Assembly (NCBI GenBank): GCA_051531975.1
Contig: JAOPTT010000006.1
Location: 398,870 to 462,869 of the forward strand
DNA length: 64,000 nt
From: Spirochaetaceae bacterium
GTDB lineage: Bacteria > Spirochaetota > Spirochaetia > DSM-2461
Direction of reading: 5' to 3'
Shown: positions 12,088 through 29,182 of the stretch, piece after piece
Layout: each line of letters starts with the position of its first letter
Numbering within the stretch: the stretch's first letter is position 1
The notes under the pieces: model-generated
The model's input: only the letters and a program-made list of their open reading frames with translations
What the model was told of the DNA's origin: nothing
Database searches by the model: none
Program-made: the position numbers and the translations under genes

Positions 12088-13237
12088 AGGAAGTTCTCCC
12101 ATGAACTAATTGATAAATATTGTTCCTTTTGATTAATGTATAATCTTTGTAAAATACCGGAATGATTTCACTTTCAAATAGATAAAATTCTTTACCTGTA
12201 AAAAATACATCTGTTCCTTCAAAATTATGAAGATAAAAGTTTCCTATAAGTTTAAAATTGATATCTAATTCAGAAAACAGATGGCTTGTTATAATTTTAG
12301 TTTTATCTAGATTTGAATATAACTCTACTTCAACACTGTTATTACTTTTCTTTAAACTATAGAAATTATTTATAACCTTAATTTCAACAGGTAAAACATC
12401 TCTGATAATATAATCTGTTACTGAATAAGAAAACTCATCATAGTTGATATTTATAATTTTGTTATCTATAAAAAAAGCCTCTTTTTCACCTTCAATAATC
12501 TGCAAAAAATCATTTACAGAAAACTCTTTAACTTCAGTTATTTTTATATATTTAATCTGATTCTTAATAATTTTTACTAGATAAGCTTCATTATTTATAT
12601 TGTTTTCAACAATCATAATACCGATGTGTTCAACATATGTTGGATGAATCCTAGATATAAAAAAATCTTTTATATAATGACCTTCAATTGGAAATTTATT
12701 TATTGTAGAGAACTTTTGATTAATAAAATTATTATCAAAATAGACAGAGTATATAGAATTTGAATTATTAAAAATAACTTGAGCATTTTCACCAATATCT
12801 GAAATAACTAATAAGTTATCAATTGGACCAGAACTATCAATAGGTATAACTAAATCATCTCTAATAATTAGATTATCATTTTTTATACTAATTACATTAA
12901 TTGAATATTCATCTTCTTTTATACCTATAAAAAAGACCATATCCCTATTCCTAGAAAAATGTATAACTTCAACTTCAGTTATAGAATCAAACTGATGATA
13001 GTTAAAATCAAGGTAATAGTCTAAAAACTGTTCAGAATTTTTTAGTTTTTGTTTAATAATTAGATTGTTATCTTCAATACCAAAAAAATAGTCAGACCCA
13101 CTTTCAGATGAAATCATAACACTATCTGTAATGTTATTAATATCTAATAAATTGTATCTATTTTCAAAATTATTATCTAAAGAAAACAGACTAATCAAAC
13201 AAACTTTAAATAAAATTAGTACAACTATTCTTCTCAT
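12080..13237 (-). CDS. Hypothetical exported protein, 385 aa, coupled to giant protein gene
   Basis: Signal-peptide-like N-terminus; stop overlaps downstream start by 8 nt. Confidence 0.75.
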   Translation of the reverse strand: MRRIVVLILFKVCLISLFSLDNNFENRYNLLDINNITDSVMISSESGSDYFFGIEDNNLIIKQKLKNSEQFLDYYLDFNYHQFDSITEVEVIHFSRNRDMVFFIGIKEDEYSINVISIKNDNLIIRDDLVIPIDSSGPIDNLLVISDIGENAQVIFNNSNSIYSVYFDNNFINQKFSTINKFPIEGHYIKDFFISRIHPTYVEHIGIMIVENNINNEAYLVKIIKNQIKYIKITEVKEFSVNDFLQIIEGEKEAFFIDNKIININYDEFSYSVTDYIIRDVLPVEIKVINNFYSLKKSNNSVEVELYSNLDKTKIITSHLFSELDINFKLIGNFYLHNFEGTDVFFTGKEFYLFESEIIPVFYKDYTLIKRNNIYQLVHGRTSYE

Positions 13238-13398: not shown

Positions 13399-13926
13399 AT
13401 GAAAGAAGTTAAATTTGTACACTCGATGATACCTGCCATTCAAAATATATCATCATTTAAGTTTTTATCAGAAACCGAAATGATAGATATGATTAGTAAA
13501 AGTTCTATTCTAATGTATGGTGAACATGAAAAGATTATTAACCAGGATGATGTAGACCAAAACCTTTTTGCAGTTATTAAAGGGTGTGTAAAAGTTACTG
13601 TAGAAGAGAATGATAAGGAAGCATATATATGTACCCTAGGTAAAGCAGAGATATTTGGGGAAGCTGGAATGTTTATGAATGTTAAAAGATCCGCCAATGT
13701 TATCGCTGCTGAAGATTCAATAATATTAAAAATTGATAGACATAGTATGTTAACGTTCATCAAGAATAACCCAAGTGCTGGGAATAAAATATTTATGGTC
13801 ATGATCCATGGACTTCTAAGTAAATTAAAAGAAGCAAATAGAGAATTAGCCTACGAAAGAAAAGAAGATATTGACCAGAATGATGTAGACGATTTAGTTG
13901 CAAATTTATTAAATAACAAGGAATAA
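13399..13926 (+). CDS. Cyclic nucleotide-binding domain protein (Crp-like, no clear HTH)
   Basis: IKGCVKV, IFGEAG and RSANVIA cNMP motifs; GGGG RBS upstream. Confidence 0.85.
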   Translation: MKEVKFVHSMIPAIQNISSFKFLSETEMIDMISKSSILMYGEHEKIINQDDVDQNLFAVIKGCVKVTVEENDKEAYICTLGKAEIFGEAGMFMNVKRSANVIAAEDSIILKIDRHSMLTFIKNNPSAGNKIFMVMIHGLLSKLKEANRELAYERKEDIDQNDVDDLVANLLNNKE

Positions 13927-14344
13927 TATAACTAAAAAGATACTTCCTCCTCTATAATTAAAAAGCCCAAACCGTAAAACTTCTAAAGACACTTTCATTT
14001 ACCATAACCTGTAAACTTCCAAAACTATTACACTCATAATCCCTCACCTGCAGCTACCACAACACCCTGCAAGCGAGTCCACATAGGGTGTTACCCTTGT
14101 CCCAAGGGTCAGGCTATCCACTTAAACTCCTCACCAAGCAAGCTTGCCTCCGGGGTAACGTTTCTATCCTTAACACAAAAGGTGGGACTTAAAGAATAGT
14201 AAGTATTAAGGGATTGATTTAATTCAAACTGGTTTAAAGAGTACTTATGTCAATAAACATAAACAAATGTATTAGGAATATTAGTAATTAATGATTGTAC
14301 AAATTGTAACAGATAACTACTAAAACCTTAAGTAAGGTCTTTTT

Positions 14345-14499
14345 AGAGTACATATCTTGCGCAAATATAACTAAAGATATGTATACGTAAGATGGTTTGT
14401 AGAGTTAATATTTTAATTATCTAGATTACATTATCGTTATTAAAATAATAATCTGTTAGTAGAATAAGATATATGAAAAACTAGTGATTTGGTATGTTA
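14345..14499 (+). repeat. 155-bp direct repeat, copy 1 (leader of NACHT gene)
   Basis: 6 mismatches by eye versus 18677-18831; weaker homology extends upstream to ~14060. Confidence 0.9.
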
Positions 14500-14667
14500 T
14501 ATTTATAAAGGGTACAGCCTAAGGACATCAGTGTCACCTTATATTATTTTATTTAAATCTACTCAGTTAACTATTATTTTGATTATTTTAATTGAGCATC
14601 ATACTTTATAATATAATAGTATAAATTAAATAGAAAACAATATATTATTGCTTATTTGGAGGTACTA

Positions 14668-16452
14668 ATGCTTGAAGAAGAGGTTATGATATCTGAAATT
14701 ACTGCTAATGTTATTATTTCACAATTAGAAGTTATGAAAACTTGGTTAAGTGGTAATATTAAAGATTTTTGGGTTAAAAATTTGCAAAGTTTTAATAGAT
14801 ATTTAACTAAAACATATGAAAAAAATAAAATGACGAAAACCCTTTTGTATAAAGATAAAGCTGTTAATATAAGTGACATTTATATTAATATCGATTTATC
14901 TATAAAAAATAAATCAAAAGTAATAAAAGACACAGAAGTTTTAGATAAAATAGAAGCAGGAAAAAAAATCCTAATCACAGCAAGCGCAGGTTCAGGTAAA
15001 TCCTTCTTTGCAAAATTTCTTTTCCTGTCATGTATCGCACGTAAAAATATAATTCCAATCATGATTGAGCTTAGAAATGTAGTAGATTTGTGTGAATCAA
15101 TAATTAGTATTATTACAACTGAACTACAGGATGGTGGAATAAAAATAAGTCTATCTCAAACAGAAGAACTAGTTAACACTTGTAAATTCTTAATAATACT
15201 TGATGGTTATGATGAGGTTCCTGCAAAACAACTAGAAACATTAAATTCAAATATTATGCAGTTTACTTCTAGAAATACTTCTTGTCCTTTAATAATTACT
15301 AGTCGACCTGATGAACGATTAGAATATTTTAGTCTATTTGAAATATATAAAATAAAACCTCTAAATTTAGATCAAGCGGTAAAGTTAATAAACAAAATTG
15401 ATTATCATGAAGACGTTAAACAAAAATTCTTATTAAAGTTAAAATCGGGTAAATTTAACAAACAAAGTGATTTTATTAGTAATCCATTATTATTATCAAT
15501 TTTACTAATGACATTTGAAGAGTTTGCTGATGTACCAGACAAAATGCATATTTTTTATGAAGATGCATTTGATACTTTATATTATAGGCATGATGTATCA
15601 AAAGGAATGTTTCGTAGAGAAGTAAGATCAAAACTAGCTATAGATGATTTTAAAAGTATTCTTTCTTGTATATCATCATCTGGATATGTACGTGGAAAAC
15701 TAAATTATTCAAATACAGAACTAATAGAATATATACGAAAAGCTAAAAAAATAACTGGGATTAACAATTTAAGTCCCGAAAAATATAAATTTGACTTATT
15801 AACAACAGTTTCACTATTTATACAAGATGGATTGAGATATACGTATAGCCATAGAACCTTTCAAGAATACTTTGCTGCATTATTTATAATTAACTTTTCA
15901 TTTGAGAATAAAATAAAATTGTACTATAAATATATTGAAAGAGGTTCATGGGATAGTGCCTTATTATTAGCTTTTGAAATGAATAGAGACACTGTAGAAA
16001 CAGAATTTATATTACCAGAACTTGAAAAAGTATTAAATAAATATGAAAGTGACCCTCTTGGATTATTGGAACATTGGTTTATTAATATATCTTTTAAATG
16101 GATTAAATTAGAAAATGGAAAATATAAGCAAAGTTATCGTATTGTGCCACGTAAAACAAATTATGGATTCACATTATTTATTGAAGAAGCATATCCAAAA
16201 GATAAAATTAAGGGTGCACTTTCATACCATAGATTACTTACAAAAAAAAGATTTAAAGTTATTTTCCCAAACTATAAAGACAACAGATTTATATCATTTA
16301 GAAATCTCAAAGAAATTGATAAAAAAATATTAAAAGATACTGGAATATTAGAATCTACAATTTATAGAATAGAACATATGAAATTAGTATTGAAACATAT
16401 AAAACAAAGACATAAACATCGATCTATTAGTAATATTGAGAATTGGTTGTAA
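14668..16452 (+). CDS. NACHT-family STAND NTPase (bacterial NLR-like, probable anti-phage)
   Basis: Walker A ASAGSGKS, Walker B LIILDGYDE, ITSRP, NPLLL, YSHRTFQEYFAA; GGAGGT RBS before ATG 14668. Confidence 0.85.
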   Translation: MLEEEVMISEITANVIISQLEVMKTWLSGNIKDFWVKNLQSFNRYLTKTYEKNKMTKTLLYKDKAVNISDIYINIDLSIKNKSKVIKDTEVLDKIEAGKKILITASAGSGKSFFAKFLFLSCIARKNIIPIMIELRNVVDLCESIISIITTELQDGGIKISLSQTEELVNTCKFLIILDGYDEVPAKQLETLNSNIMQFTSRNTSCPLIITSRPDERLEYFSLFEIYKIKPLNLDQAVKLINKIDYHEDVKQKFLLKLKSGKFNKQSDFISNPLLLSILLMTFEEFADVPDKMHIFYEDAFDTLYYRHDVSKGMFRREVRSKLAIDDFKSILSCISSSGYVRGKLNYSNTELIEYIRKAKKITGINNLSPEKYKFDLLTTVSLFIQDGLRYTYSHRTFQEYFAALFIINFSFENKIKLYYKYIERGSWDSALLLAFEMNRDTVETEFILPELEKVLNKYESDPLGLLEHWFINISFKWIKLENGKYKQSYRIVPRKTNYGFTLFIEEAYPKDKIKGALSYHRLLTKKRFKVIFPNYKDNRFISFRNLKEIDKKILKDTGILESTIYRIEHMKLVLKHIKQRHKHRSISNIENWL

Positions 16453-16500
16453 ATTAATAAGTTAGAATCAAGTAAGATCTAATGTGATAATTAAAATATA

Positions 16501-16543
16501 AATCGGGTAGCCAGAGGTTTCTCTCCTCAAGCCCCCACACCAC
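16501..16543 (-). ncRNA. Group II intron 3'-end remnant (D6 and part of D5), continued at 18434-18462 beyond the IS
   Basis: Rejoined minus strand reads accaccctgtgcggacccgcttgcagggtggtgtgggggc...ggctacccgatt, resembling class C intron D5/D6. Confidence 0.7.
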
Positions 16544-16572
16544 CATTCTATTACCCACAAATCTGACAACTA

Positions 16573-16886
16573 TTATTCTTTTGACTCTTGTTTCAAAATG
16601 GCAATGTTTACTATTTGTAAATCATTGATTATATTCTGAATCTTGGCATAATTAGCCACCATCTTCCTAACTTCTATTAGTTGTTTACGAGGTATATAGA
16701 CTGTATGAGTTTTTGATTAATATCTTTGTAGGTCAACCGATATGCTTTACTTTTAGATTTTACAGAGCAAATGCATCCAGCTCTGTTACATGTAGAGCAG
16801 ACACTTGTAATTGAACCTCTAAGAAAATCCGAACATCCTTCAATTTTACCCAACAGTGATTTTCGTTTTTTTGACAGTTTAATCAT
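16573..16886 (-). pseudogene. DUF6788-like IS passenger protein, frameshifted
   Basis: FLRGSI..CSTCNRAGCIC..YRLTYKD; another frame continues KTHTVYIPRKQLIEVRKMVANY to a stop at 16573. Confidence 0.65.
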
Positions 16887-16964
16887 TACTAATCCTTACT
16901 TTATAGGCAGACGTTTTATATACTTATATTTAGTAAGATTCAACTACTATTCAGGAGGGGATAA

Positions 16965-18416
16965 ATGAGCTGGTCTGACGATGATTTTAAAGAGATCGAT
17001 CTAGGTGACAAAAGATTGAATGCAATAATAATCAGGTTATGTGATACTCTCTCCGAATTACCAGAGAGTCCAATAAACCAGGCATGTGTAGATTAGACTG
17101 AGACAAAGGCTACTTATCGTTTATTTCATAACGAAAATGTTGATGCAGACCAAATTATGGCTACTCACCGAAATAAAACTGTAGAAAGGGCAAGTAAACT
17201 AAGTACTGTTCTTGTTATTCAGGATACTAGCTATCTTATTTACACCAGTAATACAAAGACAATAGGATTAGGGACAATATCACTGAAGAAGGGAGAGAAT
17301 ATCGATAAAATATATTCTCAAGGTCTAGTTATGCATACATGCCTTGCCTTAACTACTTCAGGGACTCCTTTGAGGCTAATCGATCAGAACATATTTGCTC
17401 GACAACTACGTCCAGAAAATCAGCGTCGATCAATGGGAGGAAAGTACATTCAAGATGTTTTACCAGTTGAAAGAAAGGAAAGTTTTCGTTGGATAAAAGC
17501 TTTACAGAAAACGATGAAAACTTCTATTGGTGAGAAGACTGTAACTGTATGTGACAGAGAATGTGATTTTTATGATTTTTTAAAGCAGCAAAAAACTATT
17601 GATACATCAGTTTTGGTACGTGCATTTCAAAATAGGACAATTAATCGGAGCAGTAGATATGCCCAATAAGGTGTACCGAAACTGTGGGCTTTTATGGAAT
17701 CTCAACCAGATGCAGGATCATACACTGTAGATATTACTGCAAGAAAGAAGAATAGATACTGCAAAGGTCGAATGGCAAGGAGTGCAGAAATGCCTGGTAT
17801 GTTTGCTCCATTTAGAATGAATCCCCACGAAATAATCCCAAGCATAATTCCGAACTACTTCCCGATATCATGATATATGCAATTCATGTACTAGAACAGA
17901 ACCCGCCTGAAGGAGAAAAACCCATAGAATGGATGTTACTTACAAACATACCTGTGACTACCTTGGAAGAGGCATCCGAAAAGGTTCGCTGGTACTGTTT
18001 GCGATGGCGAATAGAGATGTTTTTCAAATTTTAAAAAATCTGGATTTCATGTAGAGGCATACAGATTGGGAACTGCAAACCGTTTAATTCGTTATCTAAC
18101 AGTCATGAGTATTGTAGCATGGAGATTGTTCATGATCACATTGATCGCACGAACTGATCCTTTAATACCATGTTCGGTATTTCTTTCAGATAGCAAGTGG
18201 ACGGTATTGGTCCTCAAAGTATTTCGTAATAATATTCTTCCAAAGGAACCACCGACTGTTGCAGATGCTGTTAAATCAATAGCCATGCTCGGAGGATATC
18301 TGGACAGAAAGAACGATGCTCCACCAGGAATGTTTGTGTTATGGCGAGTTTGGAAGAGATTGATAGATCTAACTGAAGGCTGGAACTTAGCATGTAGAAT
18401 TAATACTTGTGGGTAA
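16965..18416 (+). pseudogene. IS4/Tn5-like transposase pseudogene
   Basis: MSWSDDDFKEIDLGDKRL, IQDTS, VCDRECD, WYCLRWRIE (YREK region), LGGYLDRKNDAPPG; stops at 17094 and 17667, frameshifts near 17825 and 18030. Confidence 0.9.
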
Positions 18417-18676
18417 TAGAATGATCACACCACCCTGCAAGCGGGTCCGCACAGGGTGGTACTTTTTCATTCCTACTATCTTTAATACCAACAAAAAATA
18501 CCAGTACAATTATTCTTTTCATCTTGGCTTACTATAAATCTCTATAAAACCCTATCCACTTAAATTCCTCAATAATAAAGCTTGAATCACGGGTACTGTT
18601 ACTATCATTAAAATAAAAGAAGGGACTTCAATGATATTAAGTATTCAGGGATGTATTCAATTCTATCTGGTTTAAA

Positions 18677-18831
18677 AGAGTACATACCTTGCGTAAATAT
18701 AACTAAAGATATGTATACGTAAGATGGTTTGTAGAGTTAATATTTTAATTATCTAGATTACATTATCATTATTAAAATAATAATCTGTTAGTATAATAAT
18801 ATATATGTAAAACTAGTGATTTGGTATGTTA
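18677..18831 (+). repeat. 155-bp direct repeat, copy 2 (leader of TPR-MBL gene)
   Basis: Near-identical to 14345-14499. Confidence 0.9.
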
Positions 18832-18880
18832 AATGTACAAAAAAATTAAAATTACGTGAACAAAAGTTTTATCTGATATC

Positions 18881-21136
18881 ATGTGCGAAATTAAAAGACG
18901 AATATTCTGTAGGGAGCATATTTTGAATAAAGAAAATACAATTAAAAAAATAAAAGAATTTTTTTTAACAGAATTAGTTAAGTTAAATCGGGATGAAGAT
19001 AGAATTAAATTATATGATAAAATAATCAAGTTAGCGAAAGATGCTGAATTAGAATCTTATACGCTCTGTTTTGAAGGTTTCAAAGCCCATTTAAAAAAGG
19101 AATATGATAAAGGTATAGAATTTTTTATTCAAACAGTAGCTATTGATGAAACATTTTTATATCCATACATTGGTCTGGGAAATATATATTTCGATAAAGA
19201 AAGTTATGATGAAGCAATCAATAATTATAATAAAGCAATAAATATAGATAACACAAATGCTACACCAAAGTATAACCTAGGACTAATATATACTGAAAAA
19301 CAAGAATATAACGAAGCGATTAAATACTTCAAAGAATCAATAGATATTGATAATACAAATATATATCAATGGAATGATCTTGGTAATGCATATCTAAATA
19401 TAGAAGACTATACTGAAGCAATTATATGCTATAAGAATTCAATTAAACTAGATGATAAATTCCCATATCCATGGTATGGATTAGGGAATGTGTATTTAGA
19501 TTTAAATAATTATAAAGAGTCAATTATATCATTTATGAAAGCAATAGAACTCAATGACAAATTTTCAGATTCATGGTTTGGTGCTGGAAATGTATATTTT
19601 AAAACAAAGCTATATGAGGAATCAATTGAGTATTTTGAAAAGGCAATTGAACTTGATGATAAAGATATATATAAAAATCAAAAAACAAATGAATTATTAG
19701 AAAAAATTAGAATTTCAACAAAATCAGCAGCTTCTGTTAAAAGTATATCTGAAAATGGTAATAGAATTGGAAGAATACTTGAAAAAACAGCCAATATATT
19801 TAAATATTCAGAAAATAAGAAAAGTGAGTTCTTAGATTTTATTCAAGAAGAAAAAATTAAATCGACTGATTCAGAATATAATCTAGAGGTTCTACGTCGC
19901 TGGAACTCCTATACTCCTATAGTAGCTAATGACTACCATATTAGTAAAGGAGGAGGTTATTTCATAAAAGCTGGCGGGTATGGTATTGTTATTGACCCTG
20001 GTTTTAACTTCATAGATAATTTTAAGGGAGCAGGTCATAATTTTAATGAAATTGATGTGGTTATTATATCTCATGCTCACAATGACCATACTGCAGATTT
20101 GGAATCAATTCTGACTCTTTTATATAAATATAATGATAATATAAAAAAATCGGATGATCCACTAAAAGAGGATACAATCTACAGAATCATTGAAAAAAAA
20201 CAAATAGAAAATAAAGAAGATATAAATAAAGAAATAAGACCTAAGGATATAGAAGATGAGTTCGATAAATCAGGGAGACGCAAGATAATTAATATTTTTA
20301 TGCCTCAGAGTGTATTTAAAAAACATGGAGGTTTGTTTGATCTATTTGAAAGAGCCGACTATCGACCTCGGATTATAGAAAAAGGTAGAACAGGTATTGA
20401 GCTGCTCCCTGATTGTCCTTTAAAAATGGATGTACTGACAGCAAAACACTATGATATTTTATCTGATTATTCATCGGTGGGTATGGTTTTATATACTGAT
20501 AATAGCGCTATTGTTTATACAGGAGACACTGGTTGGAGTAATGATATTGAAAAAGAATACAAGGATATTGCTGAAAGTATAAAAGACAAAAAATCTGTTC
20601 TTATTGCACATTTAGGTGGATTTAAAGAATATGAGAATGAATATGCAAAATATGTCTTGGAAGAAGATTTTTGTAAACAAGAAAAATCATATTATAAAAA
20701 TCACCTAGGTAGAATTGGCGTTGCCAAAGTTGCTGAGATTATAAAACCAACTTTATGTCTAATTTCAGAATTTGGAGAAGAATTTAAAGGACGTCGTCAG
20801 GAGATAGCAGAAATCTACAATGATGCATTTAATATTAAAGATAATACTGAAGATAATATTAATATAAAATTCCTACCAGCAGATATTGGACTTATATACC
20901 ATCTTGAGGATAGTATTACAGATAAAAAAGACAAGGTTAAAGCTATACAAAATATAGATATTGATAATTACAAAACTCCTTTAGTAGAAGATAATTATGC
21001 ATTTGTAGATAAGGACAAGATTGAAACTATTCTATTAAGAGATGACTATTCACTTCATTATTACCATAAAGATTTGGTAAAACCAGAAGAGCTTATCCAG
21101 ATACTACAAAAAGAATATAGAGATAGTATTAAATAA
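18881..21136 (+). CDS. TPR-repeat plus metallo-beta-lactamase-fold hydrolase fusion
   Basis: About six TPRs (LGNxY..Y.EAI..Y.KAI.ID); VIDPG, ISHAHNDH (HxHxDH), YTGDT. Confidence 0.85.
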   Translation: MCEIKRRIFCREHILNKENTIKKIKEFFLTELVKLNRDEDRIKLYDKIIKLAKDAELESYTLCFEGFKAHLKKEYDKGIEFFIQTVAIDETFLYPYIGLGNIYFDKESYDEAINNYNKAINIDNTNATPKYNLGLIYTEKQEYNEAIKYFKESIDIDNTNIYQWNDLGNAYLNIEDYTEAIICYKNSIKLDDKFPYPWYGLGNVYLDLNNYKESIISFMKAIELNDKFSDSWFGAGNVYFKTKLYEESIEYFEKAIELDDKDIYKNQKTNELLEKIRISTKSAASVKSISENGNRIGRILEKTANIFKYSENKKSEFLDFIQEEKIKSTDSEYNLEVLRRWNSYTPIVANDYHISKGGGYFIKAGGYGIVIDPGFNFIDNFKGAGHNFNEIDVVIISHAHNDHTADLESILTLLYKYNDNIKKSDDPLKEDTIYRIIEKKQIENKEDINKEIRPKDIEDEFDKSGRRKIINIFMPQSVFKKHGGLFDLFERADYRPRIIEKGRTGIELLPDCPLKMDVLTAKHYDILSDYSSVGMVLYTDNSAIVYTGDTGWSNDIEKEYKDIAESIKDKKSVLIAHLGGFKEYENEYAKYVLEEDFCKQEKSYYKNHLGRIGVAKVAEIIKPTLCLISEFGEEFKGRRQEIAEIYNDAFNIKDNTEDNINIKFLPADIGLIYHLEDSITDKKDKVKAIQNIDIDNYKTPLVEDNYAFVDKDKIETILLRDDYSLHYYHKDLVKPEELIQILQKEYRDSIK

Positions 21137-21226
21137 TATTTGTAATGAATTAAAAGTTATTATATCTTATAATAAACTAGTGTTAATAATTAACATTTAT
21201 TTATGTTAAAAAAGGAGGTAAAGAGT

Positions 21227-21343
21227 ATGGTTTATATAAAGCCCGAAGTTTTGGCAAAAAGTACTATATATATGGCAGAATGCCGTCCAAATAGTAAGCC
21301 AAGTGGAAGACCTTGTAACCCACCAGGTCCAGGTGGAAGATAA
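21227..21343 (+). CDS. Putative RiPP precursor peptide, 38 aa: MVYIKPEVLAKSTIYMAECRPNSKPSGRPCNPPGPGGR
   Basis: AAGGAGGT RBS; YxKPxV leader; Cys/Pro/Gly-rich tail; locally higher GC; directly upstream of RRE-rSAM; below the ORF track size cutoff. Confidence 0.85.
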   Translation: MVYIKPEVLAKSTIYMAECRPNSKPSGRPCNPPGPGGR

Positions 21344-21351
21344 AAATTTAC

Positions 21352-21386
21352 GGTGACGATTGTAATTTAAATAAACAGTCGTTACC
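21352..21386 (+). other. Stem-loop between precursor and maturase
   Basis: ggtgacgattgt pairs with acagtcgttacc (two G-U pairs), 11-nt loop, no U-tract. Confidence 0.65.
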
Positions 21387-21406
21387 AACTTACTATGGAG
21401 ACAATA

Positions 21407-22876
21407 ATGTTTTTCAAACTAAAATCTAATGTTATGTTTAGAAATTATGAATCCTTTGGATATATAACAGATAATAGGAATTTTGGATATAAACTAGAAA
21501 ATACCGAAGATAATAATATTGGAGACAAAATTATTTCTCAAAGTGGATCGTTATTTTATTCAGTATTAGATAAAAAACCACAATCGTTAGATGAATTAAC
21601 AGCAAAAATTTATCGCTGCTTTAAAGATATTGACTTTGGAATTATATTGAATGATTCTAAAGAATTTTATTTTATGCTTGAACGTGATGGATTTATTATT
21701 TCAGGTGAGACACAAGATGAATGTATAAAAAAAGATATCAAATTTTCTTACAAAAAATTAAAACCAGAAATATTAAGAAATGTTTCGAAATTGATTGAAG
21801 TACAACAAGAAAAATTAACACAGGATTTTTTTGAGGAGTATTTTAAAGGAAAACCTCAACTTACAAGTATTCATATGGAAATAATAAGTAAATGCAATGA
21901 AAGATGTATACACTGTTATATCCCTCATGATAAGAAAGTAAATGTTATGGAATCTGATTTATTTTATGATATACTAGAACAATGTAAGAAAATGAAGCTA
22001 TTACATATAACTATCACTGGTGGAGAACCAATGATGCATAAGAATTTCTGTAATTTCTTAAGAAAATGTAATGAATATGGTTTCTCAGTTAATGTTCTAA
22101 GTAATTTAACATTACTTAATGAAGAAATAATTACAGAAATTAAGCAAAATCCTCTTTTAGGTGTTCAAGTATCACTATATTCAATGGATTCAAGTATTCA
22201 TGATGAAATAACACAAGTGACAGGAAGTTTTGAAAAAACAACAAAATCAATTTTGAAACTCATAGAAAATGATATTCCTCTACAAATAAGCTGTCCTATC
22301 TTAAAACAAAATAAAAACTGTTATGATAATGTTAGAATGTGGGCACAAAAACATAAAATTCATGTCGGAGCTGATTTTGTTATATTTGGAAAGTATGATA
22401 ATAATACAGAAAACCTGAGTAACCGTTTATCAATTGATGAAATAGGAGAAGTAATAACTGAAATATCAAATAAAGATATAAATTATTTAGATCAATTAAA
22501 AAAAGAAGCTGAAGAAAAAAAAGATATATCAGCTAACGATAAAGTATGTAGTATTTGTCATTCTTCATTATGTATCTCAGAGAATGGGATTGCGTACCCA
22601 TGTGCAGGTTGGCAAGGTTATATTTTAGGTAATTTAAATGAAACCTCACTTAATGAGATTTGGACTAATTCAAATAAAATCGAATATTTAAGGGGTTTAT
22701 GTAAAAACGATTTTCATAAATGCCTAAAATGCTCAGACAAAGAATATTGTACTATGTGTATGGTGAGAAATGCAAATGAACATCCAAATGGTGATCCATT
22801 AGTTGTTAATGATTTTTTCTGTAATATAGCTAAACTAAATAAAAAAATAGTACTAGAAAGAAATATACTCATTTAA
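21407..22876 (+). CDS. Radical SAM/SPASM peptide maturase with N-terminal PqqD-like RRE
   Basis: CNERCIHC, ITGGEP, SPASM cysteines CSIC..YPC..CLKCSDKEYCTMC..FFC; N-terminal winged-helix RRE-like pattern; GGAG RBS favours ATG 21407 over 21395. Confidence 0.9.
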   Translation: MFFKLKSNVMFRNYESFGYITDNRNFGYKLENTEDNNIGDKIISQSGSLFYSVLDKKPQSLDELTAKIYRCFKDIDFGIILNDSKEFYFMLERDGFIISGETQDECIKKDIKFSYKKLKPEILRNVSKLIEVQQEKLTQDFFEEYFKGKPQLTSIHMEIISKCNERCIHCYIPHDKKVNVMESDLFYDILEQCKKMKLLHITITGGEPMMHKNFCNFLRKCNEYGFSVNVLSNLTLLNEEIITEIKQNPLLGVQVSLYSMDSSIHDEITQVTGSFEKTTKSILKLIENDIPLQISCPILKQNKNCYDNVRMWAQKHKIHVGADFVIFGKYDNNTENLSNRLSIDEIGEVITEISNKDINYLDQLKKEAEEKKDISANDKVCSICHSSLCISENGIAYPCAGWQGYILGNLNETSLNEIWTNSNKIEYLRGLCKNDFHKCLKCSDKEYCTMCMVRNANEHPNGDPLVVNDFFCNIAKLNKKIVLERNILI

Positions 22877-23269
22877 ATAATTCTCATAGAATTGGAATAA
22901 CCCTTAGTATTGACTCAACTATAAATGTCAAGCCATTTTATGTTTCCTACAACGCGGTTCGTTCAGTGACCTCTTTATAGTCGATTTCAATCCATTGTTT
23001 CTACAAAGCAAAGTCATAATTGACAATATAGGGTATTATTTAAAAATTATAGGATTATGCAATAGCAAGAGATTCTTGTAAATAATATTTAATATAAAGC
23101 TTTATAGCTCTAAATTTTTCTTAGTAAGTATACATGTACAAACTCCTTAAAGTACAGATTTTTGTCCGCATCTCCATATGGGGAAAAGCATTTTCCATTT
23201 CCAAAGTTTACAGGGTAGTATGAATAACCTGGAAACGGCAAGTCCTTTTACTCACCTAATATAAAAAAA

Positions 23270-23424
23270 TAATCCTCCTTCCTTTGTATCATGCTATAAG
23301 AATCTCCACTAAGGGAGAAAACTCTAGCATGGTGTAAAAGTTGATCTAACATGGCCGTTGTCATTATCTCATCATCCATAATTTCAGACCACTGATCGAA
23401 TCCTGTATTTGATGTAATAATAAT
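23270..23424 (-). pseudogene. IS21-family IstB ATPase C-terminal fragment
   Basis: IITSNTGFDQWSEIMDDEIMTTAMLDQLLHHARVFSLSGDSY. Confidence 0.75.
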
Positions 23425-23794
23425 CAATGTTGTGGATATAAATCAGGTCTCCAGAGCTTTATCCTATGAAACTGTTGATTTAGCAACTAACAGGGTAAAT
23501 TGAATATTTATATCCAAGTGCATAATTCTGTAATTTCCCAAATATAACTTTAGTTATGTATACGATTGTTGGATTATACAAGTAATATAAATGAATACTA
23601 AATATATAACAATCTAGAATATAAAAAGGCATACGATAAACTAGGGATATAATTTAGGTGAATTATATTTGGGAATTGATTTATATGGTAATGGTTATGT
23701 AACACACACAAATTTTGTTTTAATAGTTTTCTGTGAGTTGCCTTTCCAGATTGATATGTAGAAAACATCAGAAATTATATTTATTGGAGTTAAA

Positions 23795-25477
23795 ATGGTT
23801 GAAGGAATTATTTATGTTGTTGTAGGTATACTAGTAGGATCTGTGATTGGTTGGTTATCATGCAAATTAATACAGAGTAAATTATATTCTAATAAAACAA
23901 GCAATGATCTTAATAAAATTCTAGTATTAGAAAAGGAATTATCAACTAACCAGGCTAATTTAATTACAACAAAAGAAGCTCTAGATGATCAAATAAAGAT
24001 TACTAGTGAAAAGCAGATTGAAATTGATTTAATAAAAGAAGATATCGCAGAAATAAGAACTAAAATAACACAAATGAATGCTGAAAAAGAATACTCAGAT
24101 AAAAAGTTGAAAGATAATATAAAAGTAAATGAACAACTTGACCAAGAGTATAAATCCAATATTGAGATAATAAATAATGCTAATATTATAATCTCAACGA
24201 AAGATGGAGAAAATAAAGCATTAAGTTTAGAAATAGAAAATTTAAAAGCTTATTTATTTGATAAAAAGAATGAGATTACAGAGATAAAAAATGAAATTAA
24301 AGAGATTACTAATTCTGCTAATATTCAAAATATTGATCTTGCAGCATCCCTAGCTGAAAATAGTTCGTTAAATGATAAACTCAAGAATCAAAAAAAAGAA
24401 ATTGAAGAAATTGGAACAAAATTTAAACTAGAATTTGAAAATATTGCTTCTAAGATTCTAGAGACAAATACAGAAAAGTTTACAGAGATAAACAAAACTA
24501 ATATTAAGGGAATACTAGATCCCCTTTCCACAAATTTAGAACAGTTCAAAAATAAAATTAATGAAACTTACGATAAAGAATCGAAAGAGCGATTTTCATT
24601 AGGTGAAAAAGTAAAAGAATTAGCTAGTTTAAATAAGATAATCAGTGAAGAAGCAAAAAATCTTACAAACGCACTAAAAGGTGACTCGAAAACTCAAGGA
24701 CGTTGGGGTGAAATGATTTTAGAAAGTATTTTAGAACGTTCAGGTCTAACCAAGGATCAAGAATATTTTGTAGAATATCAGCTAGAAGATTCGGAAGGTA
24801 ATCCCTTAAAGTCTGAATCTGAAAATAAAAAAATGCGTCCAGATGTGGTTATAAAATACCCAGATAATAGATGTATTATAATTGATTCAAAGGTTTCACT
24901 AAATTCTTTTGTAAGATATATGTCTTCCGATAATTTAGAAGAGCAAAAGAAAGAACTAGATGACCATATAAAAGCTGTAAAAACCCATATTATTTCATTG
25001 AGTAAAAAGGGTTATGATGATTATGACCAATCATTAGATTTTGTAATGATGTTTATTCCAAATGAACCTGCATATATGGCTGCACTTAAAGGTGATCCTG
25101 ATTTGTGGAATTTTGCTTATGATAAAAGAATCCTACTAATAAACCCTACAAATCTAATAATATCATTAAAACTAATAGTTGATTTATGGAAGAGAGAATA
25201 TCAAAATAAGAACGCACAAGACATAGCTGAAAGAGGTGCAAAACTTTACGATAAGTTTGTTGGTTTTTTAACTAACTTTTCAAATATTGAAAAATATTTA
25301 GATAAATCTAAGGAGGCATATAACTCCTCCTTAAAACAATTAAATACAGGTAACGATAATTTAATAATTCAAACTACAAAATTAAAAAATCTAGGAATAA
25401 AAAACAAAAAATCACTACCAGAAAATTTTATACAAAAAAACGATCAAAATATGTTGATTGATAATAAACAAAATTAA
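23795..25477 (+). CDS. rmuC: RmuC family protein with extended coiled coil
   Basis: N-terminal TM helix, QGRWGEMILE, RPDVVI..P, IIIDSKVSL, DFVMMFIPNE. Confidence 0.92.
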   Translation: MVEGIIYVVVGILVGSVIGWLSCKLIQSKLYSNKTSNDLNKILVLEKELSTNQANLITTKEALDDQIKITSEKQIEIDLIKEDIAEIRTKITQMNAEKEYSDKKLKDNIKVNEQLDQEYKSNIEIINNANIIISTKDGENKALSLEIENLKAYLFDKKNEITEIKNEIKEITNSANIQNIDLAASLAENSSLNDKLKNQKKEIEEIGTKFKLEFENIASKILETNTEKFTEINKTNIKGILDPLSTNLEQFKNKINETYDKESKERFSLGEKVKELASLNKIISEEAKNLTNALKGDSKTQGRWGEMILESILERSGLTKDQEYFVEYQLEDSEGNPLKSESENKKMRPDVVIKYPDNRCIIIDSKVSLNSFVRYMSSDNLEEQKKELDDHIKAVKTHIISLSKKGYDDYDQSLDFVMMFIPNEPAYMAALKGDPDLWNFAYDKRILLINPTNLIISLKLIVDLWKREYQNKNAQDIAERGAKLYDKFVGFLTNFSNIEKYLDKSKEAYNSSLKQLNTGNDNLIIQTTKLKNLGIKNKKSLPENFIQKNDQNMLIDNKQN

Positions 25478-25488
25478 TTAGGGGTTAT

Positions 25489-25959
25489 ATGAAATATATA
25501 TTACAAGCTAAAAGTAGCTCAGGGAAACCATACAAAGTAGAGATTGGTGAAAGTAATGGTTTAATGACTGCTAAGTGCAGTTGTCCTGCTGGTGTATGGG
25601 GAAAGTTATGTAAACATAAAATGAACCTATTAAAAGGTGATCAGACATTTTTATTTGATATTTCAGAACTAGATACACTAAAAGAAGTTGAAGTAAAAGT
25701 TAGAAATAGTTCCTTGTATGATTTAATTGAAAAAGTTGATATTTCGACTAAGTGCGTGAAAATAATAGAAGCAAAGAAGAAAAAAGATCAAAAGAAACTA
25801 TTAGATAAAATGACAACAAGTAATATTGAACTAGAACTTGATACATTTAAATTAGCGTATTCAGATATTGCTGAATTAGAGATAGAACTTGCTTTTAATA
25901 AATATGTTGTTTCACGTTATAAATCAGATGTTGAGACTAAATTTAAAGTAGGTTTTTAA
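25489..25959 (+). CDS. SWIM zinc-finger protein
   Basis: SSSGKPYKV...CSCPAGVWGKLCKH. Confidence 0.8.
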   Translation: MKYILQAKSSSGKPYKVEIGESNGLMTAKCSCPAGVWGKLCKHKMNLLKGDQTFLFDISELDTLKEVEVKVRNSSLYDLIEKVDISTKCVKIIEAKKKKDQKKLLDKMTTSNIELELDTFKLAYSDIAELEIELAFNKYVVSRYKSDVETKFKVGF

Positions 25960-25983
25960 TTTATTGGAATAGAGGATTATAAT

Positions 25984-26844
25984 ATGATGGATTTGAATAA
26001 TAAAATTGATATTGAAAAATATAAAGAAATACAGAGACGATATACTGAAAAAGTTACAGTTATAGTTAATAAGGGTAAAGAAAAAGAAAGACATGAAGTT
26101 GTGACAGATTTACCAGAACCTAGTTTCAAGGAATGGAAAGTATCAGTTATTAACAATGATGGTTTAGGTAATATTTTAATAAGTAAGTGTGTATATGGGG
26201 AATCACGCTCTACAATAAAAAAGAAGTTATATTCATCAGAGTCATGGACTATTCTTTGTGATTGCCGTAATAAGGGTGAATTTGGTTTGTTTTGTAACCA
26301 TAAGAAGGAAATTGCTCAGTTAAATTTTAATAACATAATAGGTTGGAATCCAGTTATACAAAAATATGTGGATAGTTGTAAGAATGATATAGTAGATAAA
26401 AATCTTATATACTTACCAACTGATATTACAGAACCTTATATCAGATATTTAAAAATGAATAAGTTAATAGGCGATGTGAAGACCGAGGAAAAAAGCAAAA
26501 TCATTTTAGACATTGGTTTACTTGGGTTTACTAGTCTACCTCAATTTAAAAACTTTATATTATACTTCTCTCTCAATAAATCATTAAATAAAGAGAGTGA
26601 TATTAAAATAGAACCAGCTGATATCCATCAGTATATAAAATCACCAAAATTTAATAACTTCATCGATTTAAAACAATTTGTTGATATGAGATTAGGACAA
26701 ACTATAAGGTTTAACATACTTAATGAAAAGTTAGAGAAATTAGAAAATAAATTGGGTGTAAATATAGAAGAATTCGAGACAATTAAAGAAATTAAATTAG
26801 ATTTTTGGAACTTCGGAGATGATATTAATAAGCACTATATTTAA
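25984..26844 (+). CDS. Hypothetical protein with SWIM-like motif
   Basis: CDCRNKGEFGLFCNH (CxC..CxH). Confidence 0.6.
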   Translation: MMDLNNKIDIEKYKEIQRRYTEKVTVIVNKGKEKERHEVVTDLPEPSFKEWKVSVINNDGLGNILISKCVYGESRSTIKKKLYSSESWTILCDCRNKGEFGLFCNHKKEIAQLNFNNIIGWNPVIQKYVDSCKNDIVDKNLIYLPTDITEPYIRYLKMNKLIGDVKTEEKSKIILDIGLLGFTSLPQFKNFILYFSLNKSLNKESDIKIEPADIHQYIKSPKFNNFIDLKQFVDMRLGQTIRFNILNEKLEKLENKLGVNIEEFETIKEIKLDFWNFGDDINKHYI

Positions 26845-26873
26845 GATTAGAAATATATACTAAAGAGGTAGCA

Positions 26874-28184
26874 ATGAGTTATATCATCATCATAGAAGCG
26901 TTAGTTATACTAATATTATTTGTTTTATTAGTAGTAACATTGATTGGTAAGTTTAAGATCAAAAAGAAATATTCACCTATTATTGATATGGAAAAAGAAG
27001 TCAATAAAAGGTTAAAAGAAAAAAAATATGCTGAAATGGAAATTGAAGATCTTAGAACATCATATAAAGAGAAAAGAATAATATATGATCAATTAGTACA
27101 AGAAGCAGCAATATATAATGAACAAATTGAATTAGCAGAGTTAGGTTTTTATTCTCCACAATACTCTTATGATACATCTGAAAAAATTAAAGATACCATT
27201 GATAATGTAAAAAATAAACAAAAGTTAATGATAAAAGATAAAAGTGCTATTTATTGTAATACAGAGTGGACTGTAGAAGGTAGTAAAGCTAAAGGTAGAA
27301 CAATGACTAATAGAAATATTAGGATGACAGCTAGAGCTTTCAATAACGAATGTGATTCAGCCATTTCCAGTACGAAATGGAATAACGTATCAAGAATGGT
27401 TTCTAGAATTGAAAAAGCTTTTAGTGCAATTAACAAACTTAACGATTCCAATAAAATATATATTTCACCTGAATATTTATCTCTAAAGTTGGAGGAGCTA
27501 ACCCTAACTCACGAATATAAAGAAAAAAAACAAGAAGAGAAAGAAGAACAAGCAGAATTAAAACGTCAAATGAAAGAAGAAGCTAAAATAGTTAAAGAAG
27601 CTGAGATAGCTGAAAAAGAGCTCTTAAAACAAGAAGAACTATTAAATAAAATAAGAAGAGAAGTAGAAGATGCTACAGGTGACAAATTAAATCAACTGCA
27701 AAAACAAATTAACGATTATGAAGACGAAATAGAAAAGAACAAACGAAAAATATCATTAGCTCAACAAACTAAAAGAGGTGTAGTTTATATAATTTCAAAT
27801 ATTGGATCATTTGGAGATAATATATATAAGATTGGAATGACTAGAAGAGAGGATCCAATGGAAAGAGTAAAGGAATTAAGCAGTGCTAGTGTTCCTTTTT
27901 CATTTGATATTCATGCTAAAATTAAGTCGGAAGATGCTCCAGCGTTAGAAAAATCACTACATAAGATATTTAAAGATAAACGAGTCAATTTAGTAAATAA
28001 TCGTAAAGAATTTTTCAATGTTAACTTTGATAAAATCAGAAAAGAAGTTGATCAATTAGAGCTTAATGCAGAAATATTTGAAACAATTGAAGCTAGGGAA
28101 TATCGTGAAACCCAGGCATTACGTAAGGAAAAAGTATTAATTGAAAATGAGAAGAATACTGTAGAACTACCACAAAGCATCTAA
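26874..28184 (+). CDS. DUF4041 plus T5orf172/GIY-YIG-like domain protein, membrane anchored
   Basis: RAFNNECD; GVVYIISNIGSFGDNIYKIGMTRR..PMERVKELSSASVPF; N-terminal TM. Confidence 0.88.
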   Translation: MSYIIIIEALVILILFVLLVVTLIGKFKIKKKYSPIIDMEKEVNKRLKEKKYAEMEIEDLRTSYKEKRIIYDQLVQEAAIYNEQIELAELGFYSPQYSYDTSEKIKDTIDNVKNKQKLMIKDKSAIYCNTEWTVEGSKAKGRTMTNRNIRMTARAFNNECDSAISSTKWNNVSRMVSRIEKAFSAINKLNDSNKIYISPEYLSLKLEELTLTHEYKEKKQEEKEEQAELKRQMKEEAKIVKEAEIAEKELLKQEELLNKIRREVEDATGDKLNQLQKQINDYEDEIEKNKRKISLAQQTKRGVVYIISNIGSFGDNIYKIGMTRREDPMERVKELSSASVPFSFDIHAKIKSEDAPALEKSLHKIFKDKRVNLVNNRKEFFNVNFDKIRKEVDQLELNAEIFETIEAREYRETQALRKEKVLIENEKNTVELPQSI

Positions 28185-28240
28185 AAAGGCAGGGATTTGC
28201 TAGGAGAAATTATTATATTATTTAACAATGGGGGAATCAA

Positions 28241-29182
28241 TTGCCATACGACTTAACTAAAAGATTAGTAATTGGGTTATCATCAAGTGCGCTTTTTGAT
28301 CTACAGGATGCTGATTATATCTTTAGAACTAAAGGTGAAGAAAGCTATAGAGAGTACCAATTTACAAATAAAAATATCCCACTAAGTAAAGGTGTTGCTT
28401 TTCCTTTTATTAGAAGATTATTGCAATTAAATAAGTTAAGGCCAGATGATCCTCTGGTTGAAGTTATACTTATGTCTAGAAATGACCCTGATACAGGACT
28501 AAGAGTAATGAACTCAATAGAGCATTATGGCTTGGGTATTACTAGGGCTATTTTTACACAAGGAAGATCTCCTAAAAAATTCATACCAGCTTTTGATATA
28601 GAACTATTTTTATCTTCTAGTTCCACTGATGTAAATGAAGCTACTCTCGCAGGTTACCCTGCAGGTCAAATATTAACAAACTCAACGATAAATATAGTAG
28701 ATGATGAAGTTGATAAAGAATTAAGAATTGCATTCGACTTTGATGGTGTTATTGCTGATGATGAATCTGAAAAAGTTTTAAAAGAACATAATAATCTTAA
28801 TGAATTTCATGAACATGAAATATTGAATAATGATAAATCACATAATCCAGGTCCATTAAAAAAATTTTTAGAAAGGATTTCCTATATACAGAAATTGGAA
28901 CTTGAAAAGAAAAAGGTAGATTCTTCATATATTCCAATGTTAAGGATTTCAATAGTGACAGCTAGAAATGCACCCTCACATAAGAGAGTTATTCAAACAA
29001 TGAGAGATTGGAATATAATGATAAATGAAGCTTATTTTATGGGTGGTATTGCTAAAAACAATGTTCTTGAAGTACTTAGACCTCATATTTATTTTGATGA
29101 CCAAAAATTACATTTAGATCCAAGTTCTAAAGTCTTTACTTCAGTACACATCCCTTTTGGGGTTACAAATTCAAAATTATAA
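28241..29182 (+). CDS. 5'-nucleotidase (cN-I-like, HAD fold)
   Basis: LVIGLSSSALFDL, LRIAFDFDGV, VTARNAPSH, PHIYFDDQ; TTG start. Confidence 0.88.
   Translation: MPYDLTKRLVIGLSSSALFDLQDADYIFRTKGEESYREYQFTNKNIPLSKGVAFPFIRRLLQLNKLRPDDPLVEVILMSRNDPDTGLRVMNSIEHYGLGITRAIFTQGRSPKKFIPAFDIELFLSSSSTDVNEATLAGYPAGQILTNSTINIVDDEVDKELRIAFDFDGVIADDESEKVLKEHNNLNEFHEHEILNNDKSHNPGPLKKFLERISYIQKLELEKKKVDSSYIPMLRISIVTARNAPSHKRVIQTMRDWNIMINEAYFMGGIAKNNVLEVLRPHIYFDDQKLHLDPSSKVFTSVHIPFGVTNSKL

Follow-up and report, generated by a model that had tools for sequence, protein, structure and literature searches.

The stretch of DNA analyzed here, referred to throughout as the window, comprises 64,000 nucleotides from a Spirochaetaceae bacterium (GenBank assembly GCA_051531975.1, contig JAOPTT010000006.1, positions 398,870 to 462,869) and contains, on its forward strand, a compact cassette in which a gene for a 38-residue peptide is followed by one for a radical S-adenosylmethionine (SAM) enzyme. 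An earlier reading of the nucleotide sequence, called the original prediction in what follows, had taken this pair for a minimal system producing a peptide that is ribosomally synthesized and then modified post-translationally (RiPP). The peptide gene extends from 21227 to 21343, stop codon included, and its translation, MVYIKPEVLAKSTIYMAECRPNSKPSGRPCNPPGPGGR, is exactly that proposed; the strong ribosome binding site that had been noted is present as well, in the form of the Shine-Dalgarno site AAGGAGGT (21212-21219), 7 nt 5' of the ATG at 21227. A mechanically generated list of open reading frames (ORFs) gives a longer, 46-aa form beginning at 21203, but the start is at 21227, because the extension holds the ribosome binding site and because homologues begin with M-x-Y-x-K-P. 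The peptide is laid out as a leader (residues 1-18) with Y3-x-K5-P6 and a core (residues 19-38) with C19 and C30.

Between the two genes lies a hairpin with a 12-bp stem and an 11-nt loop (21352-21386, forward strand), also described originally, which has a computed folding free energy of -16.5 kcal/mol and a z score of -4.3, with none of 200 shuffled sequences folding as well; no run of T residues follows it. A hairpin occupies the same place in all 46 of the loci with core types A (the type found in the window, 37 of 37) and A' (9 of 9), with a median energy of -22 kcal/mol every z score below -2 and stems that differ in sequence, so that the structure is a selected one. Intercistronic elements that set the ratio of precursor to enzyme are found in other RiPP operons; by analogy we take the hairpin for such an element, acting at the transcript end or on stability, which may fix the ratio of peptide to enzyme here.

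The predicted maturase gene (21407-22876, forward strand) lies in an ORF that is open from 21395 and encodes 493 aa, of which M5 at 21407 is the likely start because homologues begin MFFK and because an identical 489-aa entry is present in the database. In ORF numbering, residues 5-113 form a PqqD-like RiPP recognition element (RRE) domain (21407-21733), followed by a radical SAM core (21860-22384; Pfam PF04055 over residues 162-307, 4.2e-18) with the motif C167-x3-C171-x2-C174, and by a SPASM domain (residues 385-476, 22547-22822; Pfam PF13186, E 1.8e-7), all on the forward strand. The SPASM domain has sites for two auxiliary clusters, and its cysteines follow the pattern C-x9-G-x4-C, then C-x2-C-x5-C-x2-C and a last C. 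Both the CxxxCxxC motif and the SPASM cysteines had been pointed out before, and both are conserved: none of C167, C171 and C174 varies among 80 sequences, and C385, C403, C443, C446, C452, C455 and C476 are kept in at least 90% of 80 relatives. The Pfam PqqD model is reached by 29 of 36 diverse members of the family, the best at 3.6e-9.

An AlphaFold model of the enzyme calculated from the 80-sequence alignment (pLDDT 93.6, pTM 0.92) supersedes an earlier one on a shallow alignment (pLDDT 50) that was discarded. It consists of an N-terminal three-strand, three-helix domain (strands at residues 6-9, 13-17, 22-26 and 44-47, helices at 49-56, 65-73 and 81-97), a disordered linker (127-138), the radical SAM barrel and the SPASM domain. 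The top Foldseek match is SuiB with bound peptide (8e-18 over 491 columns), others being CteB (1.5e-14) and the anaerobic sulfatase-maturating enzyme anSME (2e-14), as well as SkfB, TigE, ChlB and PqqE; by sequence profile the best match in the Protein Data Bank (PDB) is the thioether-forming SkfB (2.6e-24). As modeled, therefore, the enzyme has the RRE, radical SAM and SPASM architecture of SuiB and CteB. All NCBIfam equivalogs fall far under their cut-offs, the best being AhbD with 92 against 500, the models for the maturase of SCIFF (six cysteines in forty-five residues) peptides and for FxsB are not among the best 25 of 57 NCBIfam matches, and neither NCBIfam nor Pfam provides a curated name beyond the generic Radical_SAM and SPASM. 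Since no curated family reaches its cut-off, the assignment of the two-Cys, Pro/Gly/Arg-rich core to no characterised class holds, and the minimal RiPP interpretation is supported.

The pairing of the two genes is conserved well beyond the window. An equivalent ORF, of 36-39 aa in the genome loci, is found directly upstream of the enzyme gene in 18 of 18 genome loci and in 63 of 80 metagenome loci, a result that is clearly in favor of the upstream Y-x-K-P/Cys peptide that was sought among homologues, and 8 of the 17 metagenome misses are loci where either the DNA upstream or the enzyme gene's 5' end is missing. Such an ORF also occurs at 7 of the 8 loci that belong to the phylum of the window and at 3 of 5 in a viral collection. 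The exact 38-aa peptide occurs in a public protein collection (sources NCBI and Logan), where it is unnamed, and related peptides in public collections are either unnamed or listed as 'hypothetical protein'; none of the family's peptides has a match among the NCBIfam or Pfam models. In a comparison of 28 distinct type A peptide genes the proportion of synonymous change (pS) amounts to 0.53 and that of non-synonymous change (pN) to 0.13, corresponding to a pN/pS ratio of 0.25, with a lower value for the core (residues 18-38, 0.16) than for the leader (0.37). Invariant residues, written with up to 5 different codons, are Y3, K5, P6, A10, A17, C19, P21, N22, P25, S26, G27, R28, P29, C30, P35, G37 and R38, and thus include in 28 of 28 genes both candidate thioether donors, C19 and C30. 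Because the coupling to the enzyme is conserved and synonymous change far exceeds non-synonymous change, these sequence comparisons establish the 38-aa ORF as a real gene under purifying selection.

The enzyme family is large, with 3419 clusters at 50% identity (E<=1e-30) and more than 2800 homologues that share words with the enzyme of the window. The best 120 of these are 64-70% identical to it, exceptions being the window's own entry and two fused forms of ∼825 aa at 51-53% (P0004 and P0005, each a fusion of two radical SAM modules). The best homologues derive from Bacteroidota, Dehalobacter, Desulfitobacterium and others, with further ones from Spirochaetota, Deferribacterota and a gammaproteobacterial metagenome-assembled genome. 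Identities across phyla are 60-70%, and no other enzyme exceeds 70% identity to that of the window, which branches early among type A in the enzyme tree. A leader M-x-Y-x-K-P-x-[VI]-[LIV]-A is common to all relatives and is joined to at least 5 types of core, all with at least two Cys; in every one the first Cys belongs to an A-x-C that is located 13-16 residues beyond K-P. These are type A, as in the window (CRPNSKPSGRPC), type A', which has Cys in place of the Ser before G-R-P (PCGRPC), a type from the human gut with CGDGPCGRPC, a type that combines GSFAAGCP with a C-x-x-C further on, and one with C...PCGRPSC. The spread is patchy, with the cassette found in 9 of 401 genomes of the window's phylum (the window's own, which has a single copy, included) and in 1 of 401 genomes of a Bacteroidota sample, namely the genome on which that sample was centered. 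The viral collection has just 5 loci in its 2.9 million contigs, and the cassette is for this reason not regarded as a phage gene set.

The general class, a precursor with an RRE/radical SAM/SPASM enzyme, is already known; for this particular cassette family we found no description in the literature text searched, which did not extend to supplements, so that a listing in a supplementary network or table is possible. In the accessible portions of a Bacteroidales RiPP survey and a compendium of radical SAM RiPPs (PMC10352776, PMC10288494) the family is not mentioned. The closest parallels in layout are CteB/CteA (SCIFF, thermocellin), SkfB, AlbA and PapB, where a small Cys-containing precursor is likewise encoded directly upstream of an enzyme with RRE, radical SAM and SPASM domains, and by analogy with such ranthipeptide and sactipeptide cassettes the leader-guided formation of thioethers would be the most economical chemistry for the cassette of the window too. 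However, SCIFF peptides have six Cys in ∼45 residues and belong to a conserved clostridial housekeeping locus, whereas the window peptide has two in 38, is rich in Pro, Gly and Arg and is encoded in a mobile defense island; moreover, the enzyme scores far below the cut-offs of the curated ranthipeptide and sactipeptide models and no peptide model matches. SuiB, which with SuiA represents the streptide-type Lys-Trp cyclases, is the best full-length fold match, RRE included, but identity is only 14-15%, the core has neither Trp nor any other aromatic residue, and there is no linked transporter.

Lasso-peptide leaders carry a Y-x-x-P-x-L motif that is bound by PqqD-like RRE proteins. The leader of the window peptide (Y3-x-x-P6-x-V8-L9) recalls this spacing and the enzyme has a PqqD-like domain, so that recognition of the kind invoked in the original prediction can be envisaged; unlike lasso systems, the cassette comes with neither a lasso cyclase nor a leader peptidase, and the RRE is fused to the radical SAM enzyme. 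A different kind of parallel is offered by the Fxs (FxSxx-COOH) systems, for which the accessible text of Kaur et al. 2020 (PMC7159879) predicts coupling of a radical SAM-SPASM enzyme and a small peptide to effectors with tetratricopeptide repeats (TPR) or of the STAND (signal transduction ATPase with numerous domains) type and suggests that the peptide is a toxin or signal. Judging from that text, the likeness is confined to the coupling with TPR-bearing effectors, as the cassette of the window lacks the FxS motif, an adjacent zincin peptidase and the vWA-MoxR core, and Fxs systems are found in Actinobacteria as opposed to anaerobic Bacteroidota and others, with TPR-DUF2971 proteins and here a TPR/metallo-beta-lactamase protein as the effectors. 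The HXS antiphage system (HxsA-D) provides experimental precedent for radical SAM enzymes maturing a ribosomal product that serves phage defense (PMC13128918, text seen in part), but HxsA is described there as a periplasmic protein with HxS repeats that is matured by two radical SAM enzymes and a small protein, the genes are unrelated to those of the cassette and the window enzyme scores 71 against a cut-off of 268 with the HxsC model. Ophion, a radical SAM defense system, is unrelated to the cassette (bioRxiv 10.1101/2025.09.30.679545). None of the system models of PADLOC 2.0 is matched by the cassette proteins beyond the generic radical SAM core that the enzyme shares with the pVip models (64 bits, residues 159-307), and PADLOC has no match for the peptide or for the TPR-DUF2971 proteins.

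The setting of the cassette, that of a widespread mobile element in defense islands that is often beside a gene for a TPR effector, was absent from the original prediction. In the window five defense-type genes recognized by Pfam and PADLOC surround it, defining an island from 13399 to 29182. To the left are an ORF of 175 aa with a TIR domain (13399-13926; PADLOC TIR effector, 6.7e-12) and, 730 nt after it, a NACHT NTPase of 598 aa (14656-16452; Pfam), and to the right are an RmuC-like gene (23795-25477; 1.6e-105 with the PADLOC model for RmuC with defense reverse transcriptases), a PD-Lambda-1-like DUF4041/T5orf172 gene (26874-28184; 1.9e-153) and a PDC-S08-like 5'-nucleotidase gene (28241-29182; PADLOC). 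Among the 28 window ORFs beyond 32.5 kb there is no PADLOC match at 1e-10. In the surroundings of type A cassettes elsewhere, 33 of 119 ORFs (at least 150 aa, within 4 kb) match PADLOC at this threshold, spread over 22 of the 35 type A loci that have such ORFs, as compared with 3 of 34 ORFs in the rest of the window, an enrichment that is indicative only because the control consists of 34 ORFs from one genome. The matches include LmuB, TIR, Old/Gabija-like, type I and II restriction, GmrSD, RmrTA, ShosA, SoFic and AbiH. Remnants of insertion sequences lie on both sides of the cassette, on the left a Tn5-type transposase fragment with the dimerisation domain only (18066-18416, forward strand; Pfam Dimer_Tnp_Tn5, 2.6e-8) and on the right the last 52 profile positions of an IS21 IstB (23251-23442, reverse strand; Pfam IstB_IS21, E 2.8e-16), located in the 919-nt gap that follows the enzyme gene. 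Because of these remnants, the patchy spread and the 60-70% identity across phyla, we conclude that the cassette is mobile, and its location is in defense islands.

Taken as a whole the data are best explained by a mobile two-gene cassette for leader-guided, RiPP-type modification of a peptide whose product acts inside the cell in a conflict role, an interpretation that we hold to be probable without being strongly so. Its parts differ in strength. That the peptide is the substrate of the enzyme is very likely. The RRE domain would grip the conserved leader Y3-x-K5-P6-x-V-L-A and thereby place the core in the active site, with the first Cys fixed 13 residues after K-P; the 5'-deoxyadenosyl radical would then take a hydrogen from a core residue and the sulfur of Cys (C19, C30) would join that carbon, so that the Pro/Gly/Arg-rich core would carry one or two thioether rings, while the hairpin would hold the mRNA of the peptide in excess over that of the enzyme. 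We give Cys thioether formation an even chance. Among solved proteins, those closest in sequence and fold include the thioether formers SkfB and CteB, and positions 17-38 are devoid of Trp, Phe, Tyr and His in 28 of 28 distinct type A genes, making cyclophane or Lys-Trp chemistry unlikely; triceptide-type cyclophanes, against which the original prediction had already argued for the window peptide, have a three-residue aromatic cross-link and need an aromatic residue in the core. The product would stay in the producing cell and act on a conserved target or partner there. We think this the most likely because the cassette comes with no linked gene for an exporter, a peptidase or immunity and because, across phyla, type A conserves its core more strictly than its leader. 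Since the cassette has its home in a defense island, its role would most likely be genetic conflict (phage defense or control of a toxin) rather than secreted antibiosis, with the case for any conflict or defense role about evenly balanced.

Several results weigh against this interpretation. The enzyme of the window has itself no match to Pfam PqqD at E<=0.01; the PqqD-like N-terminus of the original prediction is seen in the relatives and in the modeled domain. All of the models for thioether maturases miss their cut-offs by a wide margin (PapB 53 of 340, SkfB 57 of 300, AlbA 51 of 850, StsB 58 of 625). Formylglycine formation by anSME targets the motif C/S-x-P-x-R, and an oxidation of this kind would fit the exchange of Ser26 and Cys between core types and the C-x-P at both Cys; the sequences in the window, C-R-P-N-S and C-N-P-P-G, correspond to C-x-P without the Arg, which some type A' peptides do have (C-R-P-N-R). 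In the remaining 9 metagenome misses upstream DNA is available and there is no peptide ORF within ∼400 nt; 8 of these 9 loci belong to a divergent branch at 44-50% identity, in which the peptide can sit further off (L110 and L111, for example). A contig of 326 nt from a marine metatranscriptome, an RNA library, is 100% identical to 21199-21524 and is compatible with transcription of this region without proving it, as the contig may stem from DNA in the library and gives no expression level; it is a single contig in one run, so that the parts it leaves uncovered carry no meaning. The defense island, finally, argues through guilt by association, with a small control taken from one genome.

A more specific possibility, which we entertain with considerable reserve, is that the cassette forms part of a three-part defense module in which the modified peptide is the ligand, regulator or restrained toxin partner of an adjacent, variable effector, the TPR array reading the peptide and switching the effector. 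The evidence comes from the 38 type A loci, 31 of which have at least 1 kb of downstream DNA. In 10 of these 31 the next gene on the same strand, after a gap of 56-134 nt, encodes a TPR protein (L001, L002, L005, L009, L018, L030, L031, L043, L045 and L095), or in 11 if L013 is counted, where a TPR fragment is recognized by BLAST clustering only; ORFs that run off the end of a locus were ignored, so that such counts may be slightly low. Seven full-length TPR followers are orthologues at 50-62% identity, while the genes flanking the three-gene units differ between loci, and a C-terminal DUF2971 domain is detected in five at E<=2e-5 and in L095 and L031 at 1.5e-6 and 2e-3, respectively. DUF2971 of the same type occurs in 3 of the 401 genomes in the sample where the cassette occurs in 1, and because both genes are this rare the linkage is not a matter of chance. 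Mapped onto the enzyme tree, the TPR state requires 7 changes, and well-supported branches force no fewer than 3 of these. At other loci a different defense-type gene begins 6-137 nt after that of the enzyme, encoding an FRG/PDC-S15 protein (L007, 69 nt), a PD-T4-6-like kinase (L008, 137 nt), a KAP/QatA-like NTPase (L027, 6 nt) or GmrSD (L032, 22 nt). In the accessible text of two reports DUF2971 is placed within the ADP-ribosyltransferase fold as a near neighbor of DarT and AbiGi (PMC12522546), and Aristaios, a lactococcal DUF2971 protein, is an experimentally tested abortive-infection gene (PMC11381338), and the coupling of TPR effectors to radical SAM-SPASM peptides predicted for Fxs-type systems is a further point in favor of such a module.

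Set against the three-part module is that about two thirds of the type A loci have no TPR neighbor, that two further DUF2971 homologues (48-56% identity) among 400 genomes have no cassette within several kb, so that the effector can stand alone, and that defense genes cluster anyway. In the window no gene directly follows that of the enzyme, and the candidate effector lies upstream instead, a protein of 751 aa with TPR and a metallo-beta-lactamase (MBL) fold (TPR-MBL; 18881-21136, forward strand) whose gene ends 90 nt before that of the peptide. Pfam identifies the repeats at 1e-38 and Lactamase_B_2 at 4.6e-11, and the C-terminal hydrolase part resembles Apyc1-like MBL clusters. The likeness to the recurrent TPR-DUF2971 partner is of the generic TPR kind only (27-31%), the other domain is different and a search of the other 400 sampled genomes of the phylum gave no relative of the C-terminal part; TPR-MBL is thus a possible effector partner whose membership in the system is uncertain. 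A complex prediction for the TPR-DUF2971 protein of L018 with its peptide gave a score of 0.02, which counts neither way.

Carried to its conclusion, the idea would be that of a previously undescribed peptide-based defense core, rather improbable in our estimation, in which a cross-linked peptide made on infection or stress is an intracellular effector or messenger. The product would either switch the adjacent, exchangeable effector through the TPR array, the effector being the DarT-like DUF2971 ADP-ribosyltransferase elsewhere and the TPR/metallo-beta-lactamase hydrolase in the window, or it would itself hit a universally conserved target, the translation machinery for instance, and the near invariance of the core from Bacteroidota to Bacillota would thereby be accounted for. 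Were the peptide a defense effector or a signal for TPR-bearing toxins, peptide chemistry would join bacterial immune signaling, where so far it has been a prediction, made in silico for Fxs-type systems, and has been demonstrated with a single unrelated protein matured by radical SAM enzymes (HXS). What sets the family apart from the RRE/radical SAM/SPASM systems described to date is that it is large and unnamed in curated libraries, has a core that is stricter than its leader and is at home in defense islands with effectors behind it. Even if the ordinary reading applies, its two genes provide a system in which new radical SAM chemistry on a scaffold rich in Pro and Gly can readily be tested.

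Most characterised RRE/radical SAM-SPASM products are secreted antimicrobials or signals, and the peptide might accordingly be an ordinary bacteriocin or signal that is exported and trimmed by general transporters and peptidases encoded elsewhere. The diversity of cores between subfamilies is typical of natural-product families, and an ABC-type gene is located downstream in L091, a divergent relative. We nevertheless consider secretion unlikely. Across the 38 type A loci there is no consistently adjacent exporter, C39 peptidase or immunity gene, so that the absence of a neighboring peptidase or exporter noted for the window extends to related loci, the peptide has neither a signal sequence nor a double-glycine motif, and a core that is stricter than the leader over at least 5 phyla is unusual for an antimicrobial subject to an arms race.

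Appreciably less probable still is a peptide-derived redox cofactor, in the manner of pyrroloquinoline quinone (PQQ) or mycofactocin, or metal binding by the two Cys. An extremely conserved core and a minimal set of two genes would suit such a function and PqqE and MftC are among the sequence and fold neighbors of the enzyme, yet it scores far below the cut-offs of both models (PqqE 68.6 against 381, MftC 68.1 against 265), the peptide lacks the Glu...Tyr of PQQ precursors and the C-terminal Val-Tyr of mycofactocin precursors, no partner dehydrogenase or further pathway gene is conserved, other subfamilies have quite different cores and the patchy, mobile distribution is ill-suited to a metabolic cofactor. 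That the small ORF is no substrate at all, arising by chance, as 38 codons easily do in DNA of 28% G+C, or serving as a regulatory leader with the hairpin as part of an attenuator while the enzyme acts elsewhere, is highly improbable given amino acids that are conserved amid free synonymous change, an ORF that recurs at 18 of 18 and 63 of 80 loci, a layout of leader and core that fits the RRE domain of the enzyme and the lack of any Rfam match at E<=1 over 20800-24000.

A number of observations concern the remaining neighbors. In the window, a search of the 919-nt gap after the enzyme gene for a pseudogene of the usual downstream partner gave no tblastn match better than E 0.4, and this candidate was dropped. 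The TIR, NACHT and TPR proteins look like parts of a STAND/NLR-type defense set, perhaps broken by Tn5-type insertion remnants at 17157-18416. Directly to the left of the island an ORF of more than 4034 aa on the reverse strand (1-12102) runs off the start of the window, and on the right the RmuC-like and PD-Lambda-1-like genes are separated by two small ORFs, of which one contains a weak SWIM zinc finger. A partial paralogue of the MBL part of TPR-MBL (51% over 82 residues) is present in the same genome, outside the window, at G000:C6:611026-611274 inside a frame of 932 aa ∼190 kb away. Among the other type A loci, the follower in L014 is a DUF4238 protein and that in L015 (L015:5768-9455), which exceeds 1229 aa, looks at its start like a trypsin-type serine peptidase (T-A-S-H-C) and is possibly a protease-STAND defense protein.

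Loci with other cores have followers of their own. Those with the human-gut core CGDGPCGRPC (L073-L083, L101) are close relatives of one another, and in all six that were sent to Pfam (L073, L074, L077, L079, L081 and L083) the enzyme gene is followed by one for a UvrA-like ABC protein of ∼785 aa, composed of a UvrA DNA-binding domain and an ABC ATPase (L077:1287-5347, for example). UvrA paralogues are known to serve as self-resistance proteins against DNA-binding natural products. In the branch of enzymes associated with the GSFAAGCP type an Amidohydro_2/TatD-like protein of ∼250 aa is encoded 20-250 nt after the enzyme gene at eight loci (L040, L054, L055, L062, L087, L098, L099 and L100), of which L055, L062 and L099 show no peptide within ∼400 nt and L087 is without upstream DNA. 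L040 has two peptide genes, and two radical SAM genes are arranged in tandem in L046 and L100.

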